A stretch of 64,000 nucleotides of DNA from an uncultured Mycoplasma sp. (GCA_964445515.1 CAYUKZ010000002.1:18655-82654), one strand, 5' to 3'. Shown: positions 241-54,338, counted from the stretch's first letter. The notes: a model not told the origin generated them from the letters alone. Translations and numbers: made by a program.

Positions 241-2409
241 ATGAATACGGAAAAAAGAATTTGAATTGATAATAATGGTCAAAACCAAAACAATTCAAAC
301 GACAATCAAAATAATCCTTCAGGTGCAAACACTCCAACACCTAAGAAGTCTAGTGCTTCTAAATGAATATGAACAATATTAATTTTCATTTTAATCATTA
401 TACTTTTCTCAATGTTATTCTCAACAAAAATATTCGGAATGACATCAGCAACATTTGAGAAATTCTTAAATGACCCAACATGAATTCAAAAAGTTCAAAT
501 AACTGATAAAAGTGGTGCAGTTAACCTAAAGCAAATGCAATTAGGATTCTATGTTACTTCAGCAGGTCCAGTACTAACATTCGTTGGTCACTCTGCTAAT
601 TCAGGAAAAGGTTCTATAACTTATAGAGTATGATTTGATTCATTCTCAGATTATGATACATTTATGTCAGCTAATGAAGCAGGACTACTTTCATTATTCG
701 GACCAAACTTTGTTATTACTGAAATAAGTAATACAGTTAGTCCATTCTGACAATTAGTATTTGGTTTATTACCATGAGTTATCTTACTAGGTGGAACATA
801 TTGAATCATGATGCTTATGATGAAGAAACAAGGTTCAATGGGACAAATGAACTCAGGTTCATTAGTGCCTCAAAGATCAAACATCAAGTTTGATGATGTT
901 GCAGGTTACGATGAAGTTAAGGCTGAACTATGAGAAATTGTAGATTTCCTTAAAAATCCAGAGAAATATAATGCAGTGGGAGCAAGAACTCCTAAAGGAG
1001 TATTACTATCAGGTCCTCCAGGAACTGGTAAAACATTCTTTGCTAAAGCTGTAGCTGGAGAAGCAAACATTCCATTCTATTCAATTTCAGGTTCTGACTT
1101 TGTAGAGATGTTCGTTGGAGTAGGAGCTAAAAGAGTAAGAGAATTATTCGGAGTAGCTAAACAAACAGCACCAGCATTAATATTCATTGATGAGCTTGAC
1201 GCTGTTGGTAGACAACGTGGAGCCGGAATGGGTGGAGGACATGACGAAAGAGAACAAACTCTTAACCAAATGTTAGTTGAAATGGATGGTTTTGCAGCAA
1301 ACACAGGAATTGTTGTTATGGCTGCTACAAATAGACCTGACGTTTTAGACCCAGCTTTAAAAAGACCAGGTAGATTTGATAGATCTATTGAATTTAGAAT
1401 GCCAGATATTCTTGAAAGAAAAGCAATTCTTGAAATCTATGCAAAACAAGGTGGTAAGAAATTTGCTGCTGATGTTGATTGAGATAATGTCGCAGGAAGA
1501 ACTCCAGGGTTCTCTGCTGCTCAATTAGAAAACGTTGTTAATGAAGCGGCAATCTTATCTATAAGATTAAAGAGAAAAGAAATTTCTCTAGATATTATTG
1601 ATGAAGCTATTGATAGAGTAATCGGTGGACCATCTAAATCAAATAACTTAATGTCTCAAGAAGAGAAAGAGTTAATTGCTTACCATGAAGCAGGTCATGC
1701 ACTTATTGGTCTTGCTTTACCTGAAGGTGAGAAAGTACAAAAGATTACAATTATCCCTAGAGGACAAGCTGGTGGTTATGTATTAATGACACCTAAGAAA
1801 GAAAAATTTGTACAAACAAAAGCTGAACTTGAAGCTAAGATATCTTCATACATGGCTGGTAGAGCTGCTGAAGAAATTTACTTCGGTAAAGAAAATGTAA
1901 CAACAGGTGCATATTCAGATATTGAATCAGCAACTCAAATAGCTAGAAGAATGGTTACTGAGTTCGGAATGTCAGATCTTGGACCAATCCAATATGAAAA
2001 ACCTCAAGGAAGTATTTTCTTAGGTAGAGATTATGGAAATTCATCTAAGAACTATTCTGGACAGTTAGCTGTTGAAATTGATGGTGAAGTAAGAAAGTTA
2101 ATTGATGGCGGTTATAAACAAGCAATGACATTAATTAAAGCTAATAGAAACATTATGGATTTATTAGCAGAGTCACTTCTAATCAAAGAAACACTTACAG
2201 CAGAAGAAGCAGAGTTTATTTATGAAAATAAAAAACTTCCTGAACAAGTTCAAACAATGAAGAAACAATCATCTTCTAAACCTAAAACAACTAAGTCTAC
2301 AAAGACAACAAGTAAAACAACAACAAAAACTACAGCTAAGTCAACAACAAAAACTACACCAAAGAAAACTACAAAACCTAAAGTAGAAGACAAAGCTTTA
2401 AATAAATAA
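241..2409 (+). CDS. ftsH: ATP-dependent zinc metalloprotease FtsH
   Basis: Track ORFs 976-1482 and 1651-2409, plus the 241-975 segment, share one frame with only TGA interruptions (checked codon by codon). Two N-terminal hydrophobic segments, Walker A GPPGTGKT, Walker B LIFIDELD, zinc site HEAGHA. RBS GGAGGAAG before ATG 241. K/T-rich C-terminal tail. Confidence 0.95.
2266..2409 (+). repeat. low-complexity K/T-rich tail coding region of ftsH
   Basis: Encodes [38 protein letters not shown]. Imperfect ACAACAAAAACTACA-type nucleotide reiterations. Confidence 0.7.
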
Positions 2410-10312: not shown

Positions 10313-10687
10313 ATGGCTAAAAGATCAAGACAACAAAGACAATCTAACGTACATAACTCTGCAAGAAGAGTTAGAACAGAAAGAAACCAACTTACTGACC
10401 TAGTTATTCATGGACAATTAGTAACTACTCATGCAAAAGCTAAAGAGTTACAAAAGAAAATGGATAAACTAATTACTTGAGCTAAAAAAGATACTGTTCA
10501 AGCAAGAAGAGAAGTTGCCAAAGTTCTAAGACACGTTAACATTACTGAAAAACAAGACGCAGTTCAAAAATTATTTGCTGATATTGCACCAAAGTACAAA
10601 GAAAGAAATGGTGGATACACAAGAGTATTAAAATATGGGCACAGAAAAGGTGATGCTTCACCAATTTCAATAATTGCATTTGTTTAA
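10313..10687 (+). CDS. rplQ: 50S ribosomal protein L17
   Basis: ...LVIHGQLVTTHAKAKELQKKMDKLITWAK...ERNGGYTRVLKYGHRKGD. One in-frame TGA. Confidence 0.9.
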
Positions 10688-10693
10688 TAAACA

Positions 10694-10720
10694 AAAACAC
10701 CCTAAAAGGGGTGTTTTTTT
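10694..10720 (+). terminator. rho-independent terminator after rplQ
   Basis: ACACCC-TAAAAG-GGGTGT followed by T7. Confidence 0.8.
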
Positions 10721-10773
10721 AGTTAAATTTAGGAAAAATACTCAATTTATACTATTTTTCCATAAAATCCCCC

Positions 10774-10821
10774 ATATTCATAGCCTTTCCCAAAAAAAAA
10801 AAAAAAAAAAAAAATGAATAT
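10774..10821. promoter_or_regulatory. 8-nt inverted repeat ATATTCAT / ATGAATAT bracketing a C-rich block and the poly(A) tract
   Basis: ATATTCAT at 10774-10781 and its reverse complement ATGAATAT at 10814-10821. Between them lies AGCCTTTCCC plus the A-run. Confidence 0.5.
10792..10814 (+). repeat. homopolymeric poly(A) tract, 23 nt
   Basis: Counted directly as 9+10+4 A. It ends 20 nt upstream of TATAAT (10835-10840), so it occupies the -35/UP-element zone of the putative promoter of the surface-protein operon. No other homopolymer I noticed in the window exceeds about 8 nt. Confidence 0.95.
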
Positions 10822-10834
10822 CGAAAAAAAGTAT

Positions 10835-10840
10835 TATAAT
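10835..10840 (+). promoter_or_regulatory. putative -10 box (TATAAT) of the surface-protein operon
   Basis: Only canonical -10 hexamer between the rplQ terminator and ATG 10928. An RBS-like AAGGA at 10913-10917 precedes the ATG. Confidence 0.45.
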
Positions 10841-10927
10841 TTATATGAGTGAAATTTTAGGCCTAAACGGTCTATTTATTCTACGTATCGTATATAAATA
10901 TATGAATTAAATAAGGATCTTAAAATT

Positions 10928-13900
10928 ATGAAGAATAACAAGAGAAGAATAATCAGAAAAACCTTAAACTTGACCCTACCAATAGTAGCGGTAGTTTTAT
11001 TCTTCCCTTCTGTTATTAATTTAACTAAAACAAAAGGTCAAATTGCTTATAATCAAATCCAAGAATCTAAATTAGAAGATGAAAAAGCAAATGGATCAAC
11101 TAGAATACAAGCAACTAATTATCCAATGTATGGTAAAACTGACGGGGGAAATGCTAACTGAGTTAGGATAAACAGTTTTAGAGAAGGGAATATTAATAAA
11201 GGTAGAGCCGATTATGGTTATTGAAAGAGACCTGCTTATTCTGCTTCTTTAAGTAGAGACCCTGCATGGTATGATTTCTATAGATATGATGATGCGAAAG
11301 GAAAAGAAGTTTCTTTCAAAGATGAACACAATGTTGAACTTAGAGGTCTTTACTTCAACAAAGATAGTAATTACTGAAATCATTCAAACAATATTGATGA
11401 AATAGCCAATCAAGTATTAAGTGAGCATTCTGCAAAAGAAAATGCCTATTCTATTCATCCATCAACAAGTTGAGTAGATACAAGAGGTCAAAATTCTAAT
11501 TACTTTTTCTATGCCAATTTAGGAGTTGGTGTAGCTGAAGAAGAATGAGTAGATCCAAAAGTTCAAGCTTCTTCTGAACATAATAAGAAACATGGAATTA
11601 GTTGATTAACAAACTATTTTAAATTGAAGTATTCAACAGAGTATAAAGTAGCATATGATGATTTAGATGGGTTTAATTCTAAAAACAATTTCACATTTGA
11701 AACTCCTACTCTATTAGATCTTCAATTAGGAACTCCAGTAATTCAACCTGGCGTTAATGATGTTTACATTGAAATTCCTTATACAACTGGAGTTGAAGGT
11801 TTAAAAGGTGACGGTTCAAATTATAATAAACAAGATTCTTATGTAATACCAGTAGAATATTGAGATATTTTATTCGATGCTTCTGGTACATCTTTTAATA
11901 TGTCAAATATGGAAGCCAACCAAGATGTGGATAACCAGAAATTTATTGTGACAGTTAAAAACCTTGAGCAAGCAACTGATTATAATGATTGAAAATTATC
12001 AGGAATGAGTTATTGAAATGGTTCAAAGAAAGTTTCATTACCAGATCTTGAATTCGGTCCATTACATACTAATGGTATGGCTGATGAAGCTACTCTTAAA
12101 TCATGAGATTCATCAACTACAAAACATACAGCTGATATAAATTATGTACTAGATCTTGAGAATGTAGCTAATTCTACTTATCAAGATGATCCTTTCGCAT
12201 GAAAAGTAGAAATTGATGATGGACATGGTAATGTTCTTGCATCTGAAAAATCAGATGGTACAACTTCATTAGAAACAGGAACACTTACAGTAAATGAAGT
12301 TGAATCAACTCCATTACAAGCCGGAAGAACATATAATTGAAAATTAAAAGTATATGGTGATAGGTATAACCCTAGCAACTTTACTTCTACAGATATTGAA
12401 GTAACTACAAAACCATTAGATAACGCAGAAGCACCAGATTTCTCAACTTTAAAAACAGATTGAAGAAACATTGGTAAGCACTCTGCTACTTTAGACTATT
12501 CATTCGACATGAATACTTATGACATTAACCCTGCATTAGCAGATAATGAAAATAGTACTGTTGATTCAGTTTATTTAACTAGCAATAATATCTCCTATAC
12601 AGTTAATTCTTCTGTAAGTACACCAAATATGGTTGATAATGGAGATGGGACTAAAACATATTCAGGAACTATAGATTTAACAGATTTAGATCCAAATATA
12701 ACATATGATTTAGCATTGAGTGTAGATTGAAAATCAAATAGTTGACCTGATTTTAAAACATCTTCAAATGAAGTGCCTTCATTTGATACCGAAAATTGAG
12801 ATGCTCCTGAAGCACCTGAAATTTCATTAAATGAAAAAACAGATTCTGTTAACCCAGAAGGTTTTATTGTTCAAGGAAACTTTGATGGAACAAGTTATGA
12901 TCCAGTAAATCAATTACCAACAAACATCGATTCAATTAACTTAATGTATTCACTAAAAGGTGATGAAAGTAATCCTATTGAAACACTAACAAAAACATTC
13001 TCTTCAGATACTAATTCATGAAATGGAGAATATGAAATCAAAAATCTACAACCTAGCACTGAATATTCTGTTTGAACAGAAGTAACATATTCAGCTAAAG
13101 GTTCATCAGATTTCGATGGATTAAAAGAAAAATCTTCAGTTATTAATATCACTACTGATGCATATGAAAAAGTACAAATTAGTGATTTCCAATGAACAGC
13201 TAATACATCAAAACCTTCACAAGGTCAATTTGATATTAAAGTAACATCTGGACATGTTGGAGATAACTGATATAACCCAGTTGTTGATGAAAACTCAATT
13301 ATTGTTAAAGATAGCGAAGGTAAGAGATTGAATGCTACTTATGTAAGTAATTCAAAAACAGAAGGTACATATACATATAAATTAAAAGAGTTGCAAGGTG
13401 GAAAAACATATAATGATGTAACTGTAAGTCTTAACTCAAATGAGATTAAAACATCATTTACTACAGCAGATTTATTAGCACCTAAAGCGCCTATAATTAC
13501 TGAACCAACTGTTTCAGGAATAACACAAACATCAGCAGATGTTAAATATTCATTCACTGCACAAAGTGGTAGTTCATTAGATTACTTGCCAACTAAAGTT
13601 GAAAAAGTAGAACTAATAGATTCTAAAACTTCAAATGTATTATCAACAGCGTCTGATACTTCAGAAAGTGGAACTTTCAAATTATCAGGATTAGAAATTG
13701 AAAAAGAATACACTGTTAAAGTAAGAGTTACATATTCAGGTGGATTAACTGAAGAAAGTACTGAATTAACATTCAATACTAGCGACTTCAAACCAGCTCA
13801 AGCTCCTACTATAAATATATTAGAAGAAAATGAAGCTGGTACTACTCAAACAGAGATTCAAGCTCACTATAAAATTACTGTACCTAACAAATCTGGATAC

Positions 13901-15193
13901 AACCCAACAAAAATTACTTCAATCACTGCTAAAATTGATGGAGCAAATGAACAAATTCTAGATCCTACAACTCTTGAAGGAGATGTTACATTCACAGGTC
14001 TAGAAGGTGGAACTACACATGATATTTCATTAATAGTAGTATGAGATGATTCAGTAGATCCAATCTCAGGAGTTACTCCAGTAGAAAGAACTGAAAGTAT
14101 TTCAACTAAAGCTAAAGATGATGCAAAAGAACCATCAATACAAATACTTAAAGTATCTAACATTCAGCAAAATACAGCAGATATCGATTACGTAGTTAGC
14201 ATACCTCAAGGAAGTCCCACAGTTGATCCAACTGTTGTTACAAGAATTGACGTGTTAATTAATGATGTTGTTCAATCTACAGTAAATAATCCTTCACCAG
14301 TAAAAGGTGAGTATAAAGGTAAATTTGAAGCAACAGGTTTAGCTGCAGAAACTGATCAAACAGTGAAAATTAATGTTTACTACTTAGACGAATCTGGAAT
14401 AGAAGTACCTACACCTATTTCTAAAACTAAAGATTTCACAACTTTAAATAAAGATGAATCTAAAGAACCTGCTGTATCAATTAAGAATACTTCAGTAAGT
14501 TCTTCATGAGCTGAATTCTCAGCAGAAGTTACATTACCAGCACATGATGATAATGTTTATGATATTAATATTGTAAGTTATTCAATCATTAAATCAGGAA
14601 TTGAATATTCTTCAGGAGATTTAACATCAATTAACTTTGAAATGGGTAAAAAGACATCATTCACATTCCAAATTGATGGGTTAGCAGAAGTTAAGACATA
14701 TAGCGACTTCTCATTAAAACTTAATTATGAAGATGAGAAAGGTAATGTTCAAACACCAATTACAAGTGATGTTCCAAAATTCACTACAAAATCAATTGAT
14801 GATGTAGTTGTAACAAAATCAGTATTAGAAGAGGATGAGTTATCTATTGGTTTAGATAAACAAACTACTTCAATAGATGAAGTAAGAATCTTAGGAACAA
14901 ATTCTAATGGAGAACAAACTTCACTAGATTATGAAATTACTTCAGTAATTGAACATTCTAGATGAACAGAATATACTGTTGATCTAAACTTAGATAATGA
15001 GTATCAATCATTATCATTAGAAGTTAATGGAGAAGTCCAAAAACTAAATCTAATTGACGAAAGCGGAAACGTTATAAATTCAATTGGTTCAAATAACAAT
15101 TCGATTGCAAAAACAACAGCTATTGTAACACTAGTTATAGTACTTGCAGTTACAGCAACAGGAACGATTGTATATTTAACAAAAAAGAAATAA
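10928..15193 (+). CDS. giant membrane-anchored surface protein A (1421 aa): signal/anchor + aromatic-rich N-domain + ~10 FN3/Ig-like beta-sandwich modules + C-terminal TM anchor
   Basis: Six track ORFs plus the gaps form a single frame with no TAA/TAG (checked codon by codon) and many TGA. N-terminus is KRRIIRKTLNLTLPIVAVVLFFPSV with no Cys lipobox. Recurrent ~95-100-aa modules end in FN3-like strands (NLQPSTEYSVWTEVTYS, LSGLEIEKEYTVKVRVTYS, FTGLEGGTTHDISLIVVW, DLDPNITYDLALSVDW, LQAGRTYNWKLKVYG). C-terminus is TTAIVTLVIVLAVTATGTIVYLTKKK*. Confidence 0.85.
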
Positions 15194-15205
15194 GGAATTA
15201 ATTAA

Positions 15206-18200
15206 ATGAAACTAAAAAGAGCATATAAAAAACCTATAATGATAACAGCAATTTCAATAATTGCTATTTTAGGTTTGAATAGTGTGCAACAAGTCAACAA
15301 CGGAATACAAAACACTGTTCTTGACAGAAACTTAGTTAATTCACAAGCGGCTTCATCAACTCCTAAAGACTTACATGGTCAAGAAATCAAAGATATAGCT
15401 ATGAATGACAAAGAAACATTTGTTATATTTACAGATATCGATGGAACTCAAGCGGTAATGCATTGAGGAGTAAATGAAGGATATGAAAGATCTCAAAAAT
15501 TAGCTATCCCTGTAGAAGAAGGGGATACAATAACTAATGTATATGCTGACTTTGGCGTTGCATTTGCTGTTGTGTTAAAAGCTGATGGAACAAATTCAGT
15601 TTATGGATATGGAGATAACTCTCATAAACAAATTACACAAGGAACTGAAACTAATATCACAACTCCTACTCTAGTTAAAGAAGGAATTCAATTAAGTGAT
15701 ATTACAATTGACAGATACACTTCTTCAATATATTATGAAGAAGGTTCTGACCTTAAAGTATTATCACAAGGTGATAATAGATATTCAGGACTTGGAATTG
15801 CTGATAAAAAAGCAACAATAAATGAAACAACAGTAGCAGGAACAACATTAGTTAGCGCTGATGCTGGTTCTGCTCATACAGCAGTAGTACTTGATGGTGC
15901 TGCTGATGGAGTTTATACATGAGGATTAAACTCTAACGGACAAATTGGTAATGGTGTATTAACTCATCCAGAAGATGGTGGTATTTTACCAGTTAAAGTA
16001 GATGGATTAGATGACGCAGTAGAAGTTTATGCTGGTGGAAATAATACATTTGCAATTACACCAAATGGAAATACAGAAAAAATTTGAGGTTGAGGTTCAG
16101 GTACAAACTATGAACTAGGTACTCAAACTGTTAAGTCTGAAACAACACCTCTTGAATTAACTAAATTAGAAACAGTTATTGAAAATGGTAAAGCAGGTTC
16201 AAGTTGAGATGTTGTTAATATGTACTCTGGACAAGACTGAAGTGTAATGTTCATCGAAAGAGATGGAATTGTTGAGAGATATGTATGAGGAAACCAAAAA
16301 GATGGTAAGCTAGGTAATGGTGTTACAGATGATGTAAGTACAGATTTCACTATGAGTGAAGAGTTAACACCTAATGGAGACTTAATCAATAAAGATCAAT
16401 TCATTGCCTTTGATGGTAATAGTGATACTATCTTAAAATCATTAAGAGTAGATGACTTCTCAATCCTTGAAGGATTCGGAGCAAATACAAATGGAGCATT
16501 AAGCCCTAGAGGTGGAGCAACACCTGTTCCAAAAGCAACAAAGATTTATTCACAAGATCAATTATTAGTTACAGAAGTTAATAATGTTAAAGCATTAGAT
16601 GATAATTCATTTACATTTGATGTAGTTATGGATACAAATGTTGTTGATGCTGCATCTATGAACTTTGTTCTTAAAACTTCAAAAGATTCTAAACTAATGA
16701 CTGATACTAAAGTAACAGGAATTGATAGACAAGGAGATAAAACAGTTTTATCATTCTATCAAAAAACAAACTTCGTTAACAATGGTGGAAACACTGTTGG
16801 ATTCAAAGTATCTGTTGATGGAGGAAAGACATTCTTAAAAGAATTCAATGTTAAATATCAACTTTCTCCTTCTGAAGCAGCTACAGTAGTTGCTAGTGAT
16901 GCAACAAATGTTAGTTATAACTCAGCTGATATTAATTTTGAAATTTCTACAAGTAATTCATCACACAATGCAAACTCTACAGTAACAAAATGAGAAATAT
17001 TAGATGAAAAAGATAATGTAGTTTCATTTAAAGATATGAATTCAACTGAAGGAAAAATCTCTGTTACTCAATCAGTTGATAACTTAACTGCAGGAACAGA
17101 ATTCGCAGGTTGAAAAGTAAAAGTTTACTCTACATATGGAGATTCAGCTAGTCCACAACAAGCAATTGAGACGGCAAACATACCAACATTCAAAACATTA
17201 GACAAGAAGAATGTTCCGGCATTAACTGCAAATGACTTTGCAGCAGAATCATGAACTACTAACAAAACAGAAGCTTCATTAAAATATACAATTAAAGATT
17301 CAGCAGCAACAAAAGATACATTTGGATTAGATATTACAAATGTTAAACTTCTTGGTAATTGAACAAACAATGGATTGTCAGGTGGAGCAGTAAACATTGA
17401 TTCACAAGCGCCAGTTTTAAACTCAGCCAACGGATTATGAGAAGGTCAAATTAATTTAACTAACCTTTCTCCTGAAACAACATACAATAATCTTAAAGTA
17501 GAAGTATCTTACCAAAATAAAGATGCAGATTCGTCATTATTAAATCCTAGAAAGATAGAATATTCATTATCAGATTTAATTACTGAAGATTATAATGCTC
17601 CTTCAGAGCCTAAACTTACAATTACTGAAAAAGATTCTAACATTACATCATATTCATTTGATATTGATGTAACTGTTCCTACAGCAGATCCTGCTGTTTC
17701 AAGACAAACTAAGATTAAATCAGTTGATTACAGAACTAAGAGTGAAGGAGATTCATTTACAGCCTGAGAAAGTGCCGGAGATGTAACAGATCCTACAAAA
17801 GGATTTGCTTCAACAATCGAAATCAACAATGCTGTTGCAGAAACAGTTAATACTGTTGAAGTTAAAGTAACATATACTGATGTTGATAACATAGCAAAAC
17901 CAACGCCAGTAACAGAATCTATCGAGATTACAACAAAACCTAAAAACGATAATGTTGTTGGTCCTAATGTAACAGTTATGGAATCAGAAGAGACAGATAC
18001 AATTAATGTATTTAATCTAAAATTAGTTATTTCTGGATTAGAAGCTGACGAAGAGACAAAAGGAATTAATGTTGATAAAGCATATATCGATGTCTTTGAA
18101 GGTTCAGGTATAGATCATACTGGTACACCAGTTCAATCAGTTGAACTTACAGAAAATAAGGAAAATGAAGATTGAGAAAGTAATGTAACACTATCTCCAT

Positions 18201-19597
18201 CAACAACATATACTCTATGAGGTAGAGTAGAATGATCTTCAGGAAGTAATGTTGGTCAAACTTCTTGATCAGATTCTTCAAAAGAACTATCTAACGAAAG
18301 TAAAGATCCTTCAATAGAGCCAACAATTAATGTTGATCCATCTAAGGAACTATATTTAGGTTCAGATGGTCAATGACACTATAATGGATTCAATGTTGAT
18401 ATTCAAAATGATCCTCAACATCACTTAACAACAGTAACAAGTATAGAAGTTACACTAGATAGCAAGGCAATTTACACTGAAAAATTTGATAAACAACAAA
18501 CATCATTCGATGTTAATGCAATGTTCAGTAAAGATGCAACGGACTTTAATACAGAGTTACATAATCTTGCAATTGAAGTTAATTGAGTTTATAGAGAAGA
18601 AGGAAGTAGTAATACAAACAAGACTACTATCGGAAAAGCTGAAGATGTTAAACTAATCAAGTTAGAAGAATCTTCACAAGATCCAGAATTCAGAGTTGAA
18701 TACTCATCTGTTCAATCAGTTTCTTCAACTCAAGCATTAGTTTCATACAAAATTTCTAAGAAATACAAAAATGCTAATGACCTAGTAATTGATAACTCAA
18801 ACACTCAAATACTTATAGCAGGTAAAGAAGATAATACTCCATTTGCACCAGTAACAGTAGTTGATGGTTCAACAGGAATAGATCCATTCGAAGGTTCATT
18901 TATTATTGATAACCTAAAACCAGGAACAAATTATGAATTTGCCTTTATAGTTAAATATAAAGAGAAATATCCAAATTGAGCTCCTAACAATAATTATTTA
19001 TCAGATGATAAATATGAATTAGGTGTTAAAGAGCAAGGTAACAACTTACCAAACATTGTTTTAGTTGAAACACTAAAAGAAGATGAAATTGGACTAACAC
19101 AACCTAAAGTAGTATTTGATAGTTATGAAGATAACACTCTTAACACTAAGATATCATTATTCAATGCTCCTAATGTAGAAGCTTTATCTAAAGCTAAATT
19201 AAGAGTTAAAGAAGAAACTGGAGTTAAGGGATACGAAGGTAAGATAGTTGAAAAAGATATTTCATTCACAAAAGTTGGTTCTAACAACTCAAGAAACTCT
19301 TCTGCTTCAGATATGAAGCAAGATGAATACATAATGTCTATCAAAGATATTAAAAAAGATACACTTTACTCACAATGAGAGTTAGCATTAGATGGTGAGA
19401 ACTATTATACAATTAACTTAACTGATGAAGCAGGTAACATAGTTTACACTCCATCGGCTTTAAGTAATGTTAGAGAAATTAGTGGTATTTGAAGAATACT
19501 AGCATTGATTGGATTAGCACTTTCAATTGTATTCGGACTTACAACTGCATTATTCTCATGATTATTTGTGAGAGCTAAAAGAGGAGGAGATGAATAA
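15206..19597 (+). CDS. giant membrane-anchored surface protein B (1463 aa): signal + RCC1-like 7-blade propeller + ~10 FN3/Ig-like modules + C-terminal TM anchor
   Basis: Single frame checked codon by codon. Starts 12 nt after gene A, preceded by AAGGA. Signal-like N-terminus PIMITAISIIAILGL. RCC1-type blade motifs VYGYGDNSHKQITQG, VYTWGLNSNGQIGNG, KIWGWGSGTNYELGTQ, RYVWGNQKDGKLGNG. Downstream FN3-like strands NLSPETTYNNLKVEVSY, LKPGTNYEFAFIVKY, SPSTTYTLWGRVEW. C-terminus is WRILALIGLALSIVFGLTTALFSWLFVRAKRGGDE*. Confidence 0.85.
15386..16556 (+). other. RCC1-like beta-propeller region of protein B (approximate bounds)
   Basis: About seven repeats of 50-60 aa, each with a hydrophobic strand followed by (W/Y)G.(N/G/D)..G(Q/K/E)(L/I)G. 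Confidence 0.6.
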
Positions 19598-21342
19598 TGA
19601 AATTAAATAAAACAACAATTATCTCTTCTGTGTTCTTAGCACTAGCATTATCAATGCCAGCTGCTTCAATACAATCAACAGTTCAAACATTTAGTGATGA
19701 AAACATCATCCCAACTAGACACTCTGTTGATAAGATTAAATCTATTGAATTAGGTTCAGATTCATCTACAATAGTATTTGATTCACAAGATACTCTTCAT
19801 GAAGATGAAGTATTAACAGCAGGTTACGATCAAGCTGTATGAACAAGTTATGATGGGTTACAAACTCAAGATACATCAGGAATGTTAGGTAGAGGTGAAC
19901 CAGTTAAAAACAATTCATATGCTCAAAATATCGACTTCTATAATGACCAAAGAGGAGAAGGTAGTGATAGAACAGTTAACAGAATGGTTGTAGAACAAAT
20001 AGATGCTGGAGAAATATTCTCTGGAGCTATTGTTAGAGAATGAGATGAAGAATACCCAGATGGAATCCTTAGAGGATACATGTGAGGTGGAGATATCAAT
20101 AACGCAACTATTCCTGAATTAGAACCAAAATCTAGTTCAGCCAAAGGTGTTGATGATAATCAAGTCACTAAATCATATACAACTCCTGTCACAATCGATT
20201 TAGATGGTGACGGAAATGATGGTATGGAAGTTGAAGGTGAAATATCAGTTGGTTATGACCACGCCGTAGCTAAAGCCTATGATCCAAACGGAAACCTAAA
20301 TGGTGGAACACCATTACCAGGACAATTATTCACTTGAGGAAATAATGACTTCAGACAAACTGGAGCTGATTATGTAACAGGTGATTTAGCTGCTCCTTCA
20401 CTTATTCCAGATTCATACTTTGGTGATTTAACACCAGAGAGTGGTTCTGATGAAATAATGTTCAAAGATGTAGAGTATGGACTAAGAGATTCATTCGCTA
20501 TTGTTCACAATAGTAATGATGATAAAGACCATTTATTTGCATGAGGTAATAACGACAAAGGACAACTAGGATTATCAAGTGATAATATAGTTGCTAAACC
20601 AAAAGAAGTTGTATTACCAGGATTTGAAGGTGAAATGATCAAAGTTGTTGCAGCAAAACAAACAACATACTTACTAACAAAAGATAAAGATGGTGTGTAT
20701 GATGTTTGAGGTTGAGGAACAAATGATAAACAATCTTTAGGAACTAAAAAGAATGGTTCTGTAGTAAGTGCAAATGAAAGAATTACACCTACTAAACTAG
20801 ATGTAGTTGGAAACAACTCAAAAGATATTGGAGAAGACTACAAAATTACAGGTCTTTACTCTAACATGCTATCTTCAACAGTATTTGTTACTATGGAAGA
20901 TAGTAATGGAATGAATCATGCTATGTCATGAGGAGATAACTCTAATGGACAAATGGGGCAATGAGGATTCGGAGTCCAAACTTCAGCAACACCTAAAGAA
21001 CTAGACGTTAATAACGATGGTGTATTAGGTACTGAGAGTAAAATTAAAGAAATTTCAGTAGGTTCTGATGCCGTTGCAGCAATTTACGAAAGTAAAGATG
21101 GAACACAACAACAAGTTTACATGTGAGGAAACAACACAACTGGAATATTCGGTTGAGGTGATAAAAACTTAAATGATAAGTTAACTCCTTCATTAGTATG
21201 AACATACCAAGAAAGCAAGAATAACTCTAGCGGATTAGCATTTATACAAATACTTTCAATAGTATTCATGGTACTGGCACTAATATTAATATTAGCAACA
21301 GTCCTAATGTATAAATTATGAATGAAAGCTAGATATGAATAA
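19597..21342 (+). CDS. membrane-anchored RCC1-like propeller protein C (581 aa)
   Basis: The ATG overlaps the stop of gene B (TAATG). Frame checked line by line. Signal peptide ISSVFLALALSMPAAS with no lipobox Cys. Blade motifs YMWGGDINN, LFTWGNNDFRQTG, LFAWGNNDKGQLGLS, DVWGWGTNDKQSLGT, AMSWGDNSNGQMGQW, VYMWGNNTTGIFGWG. C-terminus is FIQILSIVFMVLALILILATVLMYKLWMKARYE*. Confidence 0.85.
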
Positions 21343-21369
21343 AGAATAGATTAATCTATTCTTTTTTTT
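21342..21369 (+). terminator. rho-independent terminator ending the surface-protein operon
   Basis: AGAATAGATTAATCTATTCT palindrome followed by T8, immediately after the stop of gene C. It is the first terminator-like structure after 10720. Confidence 0.8.
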
Positions 21370-21406: not shown

Positions 21407-22315
21407 ATGGAGTTTAAGTTTGAACAACAAACAGAAAAGAGATTAGATCAATATTTATCATTAATGATAGAAGATGTATCAAGAGAAAGATTGAAATCTC
21501 AAATCAAAGAAGGTTTTGTAACAGTTAATGGAAATGTAGTTACAAAACCAAACACTAAACTAAACTTTGGTGATACTGTTGTTGTAAACTTCAAACCTGA
21601 ACAAACAAACGATAAATTAATACCTTGAAAAGAAGGTATCATGCCTGAGGTGGTTTTTGAAAATGAAAGTTTCTTGATTATCAATAAGCCTTCAGGCTTG
21701 GTAGTGCATCCTGGTACAGGAAATTGAGATAATACATTAGTTAATATCTTGATAGCACAAGGATATGATTTATCAATGAAAGACACAATGAGACCTGGAA
21801 TAGTTCATAGAATAGATAAGAACACATCAGGTCTGTTAATCATTGCTAAAACAGACAAATTCCATAATTATATTTCTGAACAATTTGCAGCAGGACAAGT
21901 AACAAAGATTTATGAGTTAATTACTGATGGGAAATACAAAAATTCAAAAGGATTGATAGATGTTCCAATCGGTAGAGATCAAAATAACAGAAAATTGATG
22001 AAAGCTACTTTAGAAAACTCTAAACCAGCTAAATCAATGTTCAAAGTATTAGAATCTTTCAAAGATAATGAATACGTAGAGTATAAAATCTTGACAGGAA
22101 GAACTCATCAAATTAGAGTGCATTCAAAATTTATTGGTGCTCCTGTGTTAAATGACCCAGAATATGGAAGAAGAATTTTTGATCCTGAATTCGGGCAGTT
22201 TTTACATGCTAAAAAATTGTCTTTCAAGGATATGGAAGGTAATGAGCATATATTTGAAGCTGAATTACCTATAGAAATACAAGAAAAGCTAAATGAACTT
22301 AGAGCTTTAAAATAG
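21407..22315 (+). CDS. rluD: RluA/RluD-family 23S rRNA pseudouridine synthase
   Basis: N-terminal S4-like domain (RLDQYL...VTVNG), catalytic HRIDKNTSGLLIIAKT, C-terminal GRTHQIRVH. Two in-frame TGA. Confidence 0.85.
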
Positions 22316-41289: not shown

Positions 41290-41375
41290 GGAGGGGTAGT
41301 GAAGTCTGGCTAAACACGGGTGATTGTAGCTCATCTCCTTCGGGTTCGGGGGTTCGAATCCCTCCCCCTCCACCA
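41290..41375 (+). tRNA. tRNA-Tyr (anticodon GTA), long variable arm, CCA encoded
   Basis: Acceptor GGAGGGG/CCCCTCC, anticodon loop TTGTAGC, T-arm GGGGGTTCGAATCCCTC, 3' ACCA. Confidence 0.9.
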
Positions 41376-41380
41376 TTTAA

Positions 41381-41455
41381 TGGCCTGTAGCCAAGCGGTA
41401 AGGCACCTGGTTTTGGTCCAGGTATGCGAAGGTTCGAATCCTTCCAGGCCAGCCA
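41381..41455 (+). tRNA. tRNA-Gln (anticodon TTG), CCA encoded
   Basis: Acceptor TGGCCTG/CAGGCCA, anticodon stem-loop CCTGG-TTTTGGT-CCAGG, T-arm GAAGGTTCGAATCCTTC. Confidence 0.9.
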
Positions 41456-41462
41456 TTATTGT

Positions 41463-41538
<76 letters not shown>

Positions 41539-41544
41539 TTTTTT

Positions 41545-41631
41545 GCCCAGGTGGTGGAATTGGTAGACACGAGGGATTTAAGCTCCCTTGCTGGCAACAG
41601 CGTGAGGGTTCAAGTCCCTCTCTGGGCACCA
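41545..41631 (+). tRNA. tRNA-Leu (anticodon TAA), long variable arm, CCA encoded
   Basis: Acceptor GCCCAGG/TCTGGGC, anticodon stem-loop AGGGA-TTTAAGC-TCCCT, variable arm TGCTGGCAACAGCG, T-arm GAGGGTTCAAGTCCCTC. Confidence 0.9.
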
Positions 41632-54165: not shown

Positions 54166-54305
54166 TATAATTGAGAGGTAATAACTTAAGACAGTAGCTG
54201 TCAATGACATAAGTGCTACCGAGGTTTAGAAATTATATGTATTTATACATATGCTTTTAGACACACTTGGTAGTAAGTCAAATATATCCAGTGTGTCTTT
54301 TTATT
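54166..54305 (+). promoter_or_regulatory. extended -10 promoter (TGTTATAAT) plus ~125-nt three-hairpin leader ending in a strong terminator-like hairpin, 35 nt before rplK
   Basis: H1 is a long imperfect hairpin GGTA..ACTTAAGACAG-TAG-CTGTC..CATAAGT..TACC (about 54177-54220). H2 is ATATGTAT-TT-ATACATAT (54235-54252). H3 is AGACACAC(T)TGG-N17-CCAGTGTGTCT followed by TTTTATT (54259-54305). Confidence 0.55.
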
Positions 54306-54338
54306 ACAAAAAAGAAAAAAACAGAAGGAGAAAGAAAC

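Follow-up and report, generated by a model that had tools for sequence, protein, structure and literature searches.

What do the wall-less symbionts of arthropods present to their hosts? The question is raised in concrete form by one locus in a 64 kb stretch of DNA assigned to an uncultured Mycoplasma sp. (GCA_964445515.1, CAYUKZ010000002.1:18655-82654), which as a whole is here called the window and by whose positions coordinates are given. Between rplQ and rluD, at positions 10774 to 21369, the window carries three co-oriented genes, p1, p2 and p3, the products of which combine an aromatic-rich head, arrays of FN3 modules and RCC1-like propellers, and a long poly(A) tract lies just upstream of the first of them. 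Based on the evidence assembled in this study, the block is understood as a real, well-delimited and plausible host-interaction operon, and with moderate confidence we read it as a host-contact operon of the fibrillar-adhesin-like kind. Hepatoplasmataceae and their relatives, among which the source organism appears to belong, are widespread in crustaceans and other arthropods as symbionts of the gut and digestive gland, and we know of no host-contact factor in any of them. The operon offers a concrete candidate, a compact unit whose tip domains are of two kinds, and with it an experimental handle on a group of symbionts that is unculturable. Its domain content and likely regulation would not surprise a specialist on mollicutes.

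Domain folds, anchors and gene structure

Profile comparison places p2 and p3 in the RCC1 repeat superfamily. The Pfam family PF00415 (RCC1) is matched with 63.8 bits in p2 and 83.1 bits in p3 (cut-off 21.7), PF13540 with 34.8 and 41.3 bits, respectively (cut-off 22), and a profile of the p3 family run against the PDB retrieves UVR8, HERC2, RPGR and RCC1 itself (best E ~1e-23; the 30 matches listed all at E <= 1e-5). A local hidden Markov model (HMM) of the propeller blade recognises five blades in p2 and six in p3, with unassigned N-terminal sequence long enough to hold the remainder of seven. The stalk modules of p1 and p2 are assigned, by profile and by structural model, to a divergent form of the FN3 fold, the seven-stranded β-sandwich. 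An HMM built iteratively from one p1 repeat finds nine modules in p1, spaced with a period of ~110-120 aa, and four in p2, hence 13 confident modules in total; it also finds five and seven in the large proteins of a related cassette on contig L002, described below. Searched against the PDB, a profile of 23 modules returns almost only FN3 structures (fibronectin, PTPRF) at E 4.6e-6 to 6e-4. The AlphaFold model of the sixth p1 module (aa 852-958), for which the alignment consisted of eight p1 modules only, has a predicted local distance difference test score (pLDDT) of 89.5 and a predicted template modelling score (pTM) of 0.80, and its Foldseek matches in the PDB are again almost all FN3 (Robo3, titin, Ihog; E from 8e-5, template modelling score 0.5-0.74). 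In Pfam, the fn3 match of p1 is only sub-threshold: no single module exceeds 23.0 bits, where PF00041 has a gathering threshold of 25, and 7 of the 23 modules give sub-threshold matches. A search in NCBIfam returned no family.

A preliminary description of this DNA, made from the sequence alone, had spoken of two RCC1-like propellers and of about 20 divergent FN3/Ig-like modules, and had named profile searches and AlphaFold models as the way to check them. The propellers stand, both being above the Pfam cut-off, and the FN3 nature of the arrays is upheld by the fold, with the PF00041 threshold itself missed. The module count is reduced to the confident 13, of which nine are in p1 and four in p2. 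The remaining ~110-aa stretches (p1 1268-1390; p2 446-565, 891-1168 and 1252-1425) have no significant similarity to the module profile in hhalign, so that the larger figure is an extrapolation.

The head of p1, correctly singled out at that stage as aromatic-rich and of no recognisable kind, has a W+Y+F content of 14.2%, compared to 8.4% in the stalk. It appears to be a lineage-specific orphan. An exhaustive phmmer search with aa 30-320 against 1.84 billion representative proteins recovered the head itself alone, the homologue search with full-length p1 likewise ended on p1 alone, and no match to the head was obtained in Pfam or in the PDB.

How the proteins are held is suggested by their ends. 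All three, together with the three proteins of the related cassette (q1-q3), begin with a hydrophobic segment and end in a transmembrane (TM) helix followed by 3-9 residues of basic tail. Not one of the six contains a cysteine; therefore, they are not lipoproteins. The topology anticipated in the preliminary description, non-lipoprotein with an N-terminal signal or anchor and a C-terminal TM helix, is thus found in each of p1-p3, and the proteins are predicted to be type-I-like membrane proteins standing on the cell surface.

The gene structure is that of a compact unit (Table 1). All checks of open reading frames (ORFs) and all translations were done under genetic code 4 (translation table 4); the window has a G+C content of 31%, and TGA is read through as sense. 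The three frames, of the lengths first described, are free of internal TAA and TAG and contain 59 in-frame TGA codons (23 in p1, 23 in p2, 13 in p3), with one TGG in all three. At the p1-p2 junction the gap is 12 nt, with a ribosome-binding site (AAGGA) that overlaps the stop codon of p1; at the p2-p3 junction the genes overlap by 1 nt (TAATG), with GGAGA located 7 nt upstream. Judged from these junctions, p1, p2 and p3 appear to be translationally coupled. No convincing terminator is found inside the operon, where terminator-like sites number 6 compared to 3.5 +/- 2.1 in shuffled sequence. Hairpins that do fold bound the block on both sides, as had been proposed; the downstream one, then called strong, is of moderate strength only by its folding energy. 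Upstream lie rpoA and then rplQ (Pfam Ribosomal_L17), downstream rluD (S4 and PseudoU_synth_2 domains) and then RNase J, which confirms the position given for the block. Its composition is native, with 31.8% GC compared to 30.9% in the rest of the window. The stem of the rplQ terminator (10690-10722) varies by haplotype, ACACCCT or ACACTCC, with the pairing kept as judged by eye in comparison with contigs L085-L089 and L091.

A conserved triad that diverges rapidly

The RpoB protein of the window is 59-60% identical to that of Candidatus Hepatoplasma crinochetorum and Ca. H. scabrum, 76% identical to that of a metagenome-assembled genome (MAG) labelled 'Mycoplasmataceae', and 82-90% identical to RpoB on contigs inside large NCBI assemblies that resemble host genomes. 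By this measure, the source organism, a wall-less symbiont, appears to be a relative of Candidatus Hepatoplasma, which lives in the gut of woodlice. The only close relative of p3, at 31% identity over the full length, is located on contig L002 of GCA_040777565.1, and it ends a cassette of three genes, q1, q2 and q3 (Table 1), arranged in the same order as p1, p2 and p3 and pairing with them one-to-one. The extent of alignment differs characteristically from pair to pair. p1 and q1 align over the membrane-proximal (C-terminal) half only, and their heads are unalignable; p2 and q2 align over the N-terminal half, from the propeller to the third module; p3 and q3 align from end to end. Between the species, p1 thus appears to keep its base and to replace its tip, and p2 to keep its tip as its base drifts. 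The pattern fits a variable specificity determinant that is paired with a propeller recognising something conserved.

The divergence of the cassette stands out from that of the genome around it. GCA_040777565.1 and the window are 90% identical in RpoB, 88% in RpoC and 97.5% in L7/L12, compared to only 26-30% in the cassette proteins; the yardstick here is made up of ribosomal and RNA-polymerase proteins, the slowest-evolving class, and the RpoB contig and the cassette contig of GCA_040777565.1 may not be from one symbiont genome. The gene triad is thus, as far as these sequences allow, conserved between species yet fast-diverging, losing identity about three times faster than the core proteins and doing so behind a homopolymer that varies among strains. 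The locus differs as well: the L002 cassette is placed between a Fic gene and genes for a multi-pass membrane protein and an ABC ATPase. The Fic gene lies divergently upstream of the cassette. Also upstream, at L002 304-332 and 372-400, is a perfect 29-nt direct repeat, TACTAGTATGTCCCGCTAGATCGGTATCT, that is G+C-rich for the genome, absent from the window and not bracketing the cassette.

Single p3-like genes for a propeller with a TM helix occur in two more distant relatives, sometimes in paralogous arrays. One of these relatives (GCA_040777085.1, contig L004, 10001-21884) packs RCC1-like genes, at least four of them, into 22 kb, which indicates that proteins of this type can form arrays of paralogues. 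A scan of GTDB genome contigs with an alignment of the p3 family gave generic RCC1 proteins alone, at ~25% identity, with the source organism absent from the representatives retrieved, and a scan of JGI metagenome contigs with an alignment of p3 and q3 gave generic RCC1 matches alone; RpoA had no match in the JGI metagenome contigs.

Variation within the species can be read from eight further contigs that contain the operon at 99.1-99.8% DNA identity. NCBI assemblies of the JAHMFK-JAHMFS series account for seven of these and a Logan assembly for the eighth; with the window, they constitute nine alleles. All frames are intact in 9/9. Variable sites per kb amount to 19 in p1, 7.5 in p2 and 5.7 in p3, compared to 0 in rplQ and 17.6 in RNase J. 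The ratio of non-synonymous to synonymous changes is 37/44 in p1, 9/24 in p2, 1/9 in p3 and 7/22 in RNase J, from which p1 appears to be the least constrained of these genes, yet under purifying selection. In four host assemblies (L087-L090) the operon is found on contigs of ~11.2 kb, all of which start at 10551 inside the 3' end of rplQ and end 330-440 nt into rluD (window 21730-21844); that the assemblies break so precisely on either side of the operon may be due to strain alleles that co-exist.

Table 1. Features of the p1-p3 operon and its surroundings, and of the related cassette on L002 (nt, window positions; aa, protein positions)
Feature	Location	Strand	Remarks
p1 ORF, 1421 aa	10928-15193	+	intact under table 4
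p1 signal/anchor	aa 1-35
p1 head	aa 36-296 (nt 11033-11815)
p1 FN3 modules, nine	aa 297-1267 (nt 11816-14728)		module profile
p1 membrane-proximal domain	aa 1268-1390
p1 TM helix and KKK tail	aa 1391-1421
p2 ORF, 1463 aa	15206-19597	+	intact under table 4
p2 signal/anchor	aa 1-30
p2 RCC1-like propeller	~aa 46-450 (nt 15341-16555)		Pfam
p2 FN3 modules, four confident	aa 566-641, 683-769, 809-890, 1169-1251		module profile
p2 TM helix and basic tail	aa 1424-1463
p3 ORF, 581 aa	19597-21342	+	intact under table 4
p3 signal peptide	aa 1-26		PAAS motif
p3 RCC1-like propeller	~aa 40-540
p3 TM helix and basic tail	aa 543-581		no stalk
rplQ intrinsic terminator (upstream boundary)	10693-10720	+	hairpin -13.8 kcal/mol, z -3.86, then T7
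poly(A)23 tract, candidate hypermutable switch	10792-10814	+	sole homopolymer >= 10 nt in the 64 kb window
best -10 hexamer, TATAAT	10835-10840	+	read from sequence; 88 nt upstream of p1 ATG
small hairpin in predicted 5' leader	10858-10874	+	-6.7 kcal/mol, z -3.35, then TTTATT
operon-closing intrinsic terminator	21341-21369	+	10-bp AT-rich stem, -8.6 kcal/mol, z -3.77, then T8
four clustered tRNA genes	within 41290-41628
ribosomal protein L10 leader (Rfam RF00557)	within 54167-54311		upstream of rplJ
q1, 1716 aa	L002		different head, then five FN3 modules, TM helix
q2, 1421 aa	L002		RCC1, then FN3 modules, TM helix
q3, 578 aa	L002		RCC1 and TM helix

The poly(A) tract and the role of the operon

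The tract upstream of p1 had been described as unique, which it is, and as suggesting that the module is switchable. The latter idea has gained real substance, the tract being length-polymorphic and having a counterpart in the sister cassette; ON/OFF switching itself continues to be a matter of inference. Among the nine same-species sequences the window has A23, six contigs have A17 and two have A18. Two lengths occur within each of three near-identical flanking haplotypes, and the 240-nt spacer as a whole has no more than 12 variable sites; the tract must, on this account, have changed repeatedly. The C run just before it is C3 or C4 among the haplotypes. On L002, an A16 tract, the sole homopolymer of 10 nt or more in 21.7 kb, precedes a TATAAT box by 5 nt and the start of q1 by ~20 nt. 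That unrelated intergenic sequences at two loci both have a long A tract before the first gene of the cassette argues for a function. Since no -35 element accompanies it, the -10 hexamer of the window was missed by a consensus scan. The small hairpin that follows this box, ahead of the p1 start codon, may be an attenuator or a chance structure. Overall, that the poly(A) tract tunes or switches expression is a tentative reading, to which our analysis gives an even chance or slightly less.

The mechanism we propose combines these elements. The block would be expressed as one transcription unit of a Hepatoplasmataceae-related arthropod symbiont, and its three products would be exported and held by their C-terminal helices. 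In p1, at least nine FN3 modules would form a stalk that bears the aromatic-rich, lineage-specific head; p2 would carry an RCC1-like propeller on a stalk similar in length to that of p1; and p3, with its RCC1-like propeller directly on the TM helix, would be located at the membrane, forming the base. Tight coupling and conserved gene order suggest that the three proteins act together. As a host-contact apparatus, they would hold two different binding tips a few tens of nm from the membrane, a reach estimated from the FN3 domain, usually quoted as ~3.5-4 nm. Expression would be modulated by slipped-strand changes of poly(A) length upstream of the -10 box, in the manner of the Mycoplasma hyorhinis vlp genes. 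A more far-reaching version, in which the operon is a phase-variable attachment apparatus conserved in Hepatoplasmataceae-like symbionts, with a fast-evolving p1 head, a conserved p2 propeller and a co-assembling p3, with a Vlp-like switch governing a 10-kb non-lipoprotein operon, and with the host or tissue colonised being set thereby, is in our estimation unlikely to hold in full.

A number of observations weigh against the host-contact function and its switching. Pfam searches recognised no known adhesive domain in p1-p3, and the host-contact role, read from sequence and models, is putative. If uncleaved, the N-terminal segments may anchor the proteins at both ends. The p1 head, which on a specificity role would be expected to vary, is almost invariant in the species: residue-changing variation affects 1 of its 261 codons among the nine alleles, so that there is no obvious intraspecific diversifying selection on it, and the idea that the head might be the most polymorphic part was dropped on this count. 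Variation is concentrated instead in FN3 module 8 (p1 aa 1076-1186, window 14153-14485), which has 17 residue-changing and 10 silent variable codons and looks like a mosaic segment imported by recombination. Predicted by AlphaFold without an alignment, the head, the putative binding tip of p1, gave a pLDDT of 31.8, which is unusable. As regards the switch, the distance from tract to -10 box differs (20 nt in the window, 5 nt on L002), the window tract is upstream of the -35 position and not in a classical -35/-10 spacer, and homopolymer lengths in assemblies are error-prone. Given the assembly error and the differing geometry, switching is something that we infer.

Part of this also speaks for another account of the tract, namely that it is a static, A-rich upstream promoter element, that the differences in length are assembly or sequencing noise, and that the operon is constitutive. 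Its placement upstream of the -35 position and the occurrence of A17 in 6/9 sequences are as this account would have it. Set against it are the length differences inside each of the three flanking haplotypes and the independent tract before the cassette's first gene in the other species, with no further homopolymer that reaches 10 nt in the 64 kb and 21.7 kb taken together; we regard a static element as rather unlikely, if still worth serious consideration. The proteins themselves could be imagined as a passive protective coat or spacer, replacing a cell wall or glycocalyx and shielding the cell from digestive enzymes and surfactants. Long cysteine-free FN3 arrays, TM anchoring of all three proteins and the lack of a recognisable adhesive domain would suit such a coat, as would the digestive glands that the organism's relatives inhabit. 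However, two distinct globular tips in a conserved three-gene stoichiometric arrangement exceed what a spacer needs, and a single-copy operon behind a hypermutable tract is better suited to a dispensable interaction factor than to an essential coat. We therefore consider the coat unlikely and retain the host-contact operon as the better description.

Three further explanations are poorly supported. Mimicry of host RCC1, the guanine nucleotide exchange factor (GEF) of Ran, by eukaryote-like effectors acting in host cells has been proposed for RCC1-repeat effectors of Legionella, and the repeats studied here do score best against eukaryotic structures of the RCC1 superfamily. Yet p2 and p3 are anchored by a C-terminal TM helix, with only a few residues of tail in the cytoplasm, many bacterial surface proteins contain RCC1 repeats, and the composition of the operon is native. 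The RCC1-like proteins of Kawato et al. emerged from a screen for eukaryote-like proteins, but these authors judged the resemblance to be at the level of the fold only, and Hepatoplasmataceae are thought to be extracellular ectosymbionts (PMC10928387); an effector role is accordingly very improbable. Still somewhat less probable is a motility or attachment-organelle machine like Gli123/Gli349/Gli521 of Mycoplasma mobile. It would account for three large surface proteins in one operon, and Hepatoplasma is described as stalk-forming in the title of Wang et al. 2004, but sequence similarity to any characterised family is absent, there are no adjacent motor genes, and cytoplasmic tails of only 3-9 residues leave no obvious link to an internal motor. 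The least credible is that the cassette belongs to a phage or mobile element as cargo, or is an anti-phage system. The cassette does occupy different loci in the two sister species, and FN3 arrays occur in phage fibres; against this, PHROGs gives a generic RCC1 match alone and PADLOC none, neither integrase nor repeats nor tRNA bracket the cassette, the composition is native here too, and plasmid records contain no match to p1 and only weak generic RCC1 matches to p3, none in plasmids of Mollicutes.

What follows from the preferred host-contact reading depends on the tract. If it switches expression, slipped-strand phase variation would extend beyond the lipoproteins of vertebrate-pathogen mycoplasmas to giant TM-anchored proteins of invertebrate symbionts. 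If it is not a switch, the operon would be one more lineage-specific putative adhesin cluster of the type noted in the family.

Comparison with known systems

In fibrillar adhesins, repeated β-sandwich domains form a stalk between the anchor in the cell and a distal domain that binds. p1 and p2 resemble them in having a long FN3 array (nine modules and at least four, respectively), with a separate globular domain at its distal end and one anchor at the other. They differ in that the anchor is a C-terminal TM helix, as opposed to an LPXTG, outer-membrane or RTX-type element, and in that an orphan fold forms the tip of p1 and an RCC1-like propeller that of p2; neither is an established adhesive domain, and binding by them is putative. 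With the eukaryotic RCC1 superfamily (RCC1, UVR8, the HERC2 RCC1-like domain, RPGR) the common ground is in PF00415 matches above the cut-off and in the best sequence matches in the PDB. The domain in p2 and p3 is bacterial, predicted to be extracellular and membrane-anchored, and a GEF function for it lacks support.

Among arthropod-associated mollicutes, ScARP/SARP1 of Spiroplasma citri has what we take to be the same overall topology, in which an N-terminal signal sequence is followed by a repeat region and a C-terminal TM helix leads into a short cytoplasmic tail. In sequence the two are not similar, the repeats here being FN3 modules of ~110 aa, not sarpin repeats of ~40 aa, and tblastn of p1 and p3 against 72,556 plasmids, which should include those of Spiroplasma, returned no match in Mollicutes.

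The regulatory parallel is to Mycoplasma hyorhinis, in which insertions and deletions in the promoter poly(A) of vlp genes switch transcription (Citti & Wise 1995, as reported in PMC10502178). As in vlp, a long poly(A) tract is located just upstream of the promoter of a mollicute surface protein and varies in length among near-identical strains. The differences are several: the tract of the window is upstream of the -35 position, not in the spacer, and switching by it is putative; there is one operon, not a multigene family; the products have neither cysteine nor lipobox; and the coding regions of p1-p3, which contain no in-frame tandem or long direct DNA repeats, offer no basis for size variation of the Vlp kind. 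Membership in the variable lipoproteins of mycoplasmas (Vlp/Vsp/Vsa/Vpma) was accordingly rejected, for want of a lipobox cysteine and of coding repeats.

The nearest precedent comes from Kawato et al. 2024 (PMC10928387), who reported 7-10 RCC1-like proteins per Hepatoplasma genome in Hepatoplasmataceae MAGs, modelled one of them with a propeller of seven blades and, after it, four Ig-like folds, and described tandem clusters of 3-4 giant ORFs of repetitive β-sandwiches as proposed adhesins. The lineage is the same or a neighbouring one, as judged by the RpoB identity to Ca. Hepatoplasma; p2 has the same succession of an N-terminal RCC1-like propeller and Ig/FN3-type folds; and the cluster of three large tandem ORFs with β-sandwich repeats, likened here by description, is of the same proposed and functionally uncharacterised role in host interaction. 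The operon therefore belongs to a kind already noted in Hepatoplasmataceae, though never functionally characterised. The preliminary description, which saw no likeness to any characterised adhesin family of Mollicutes, was right in that no such family is matched, the proteins of Kawato et al. being functionally uncharacterised themselves, and overstated the case in that a similar kind was on record. The Kawato report is silent on TM anchors, signal peptides, homopolymer tracts and phase variation, and neither the fixed triad of head-stalk, propeller-stalk and propeller-only proteins nor the orphan head of p1 is described in it. What the present study adds to the known kind is thus the fixed triad, the orphan head, the TM anchoring and a poly(A) tract that is both conserved and polymorphic.

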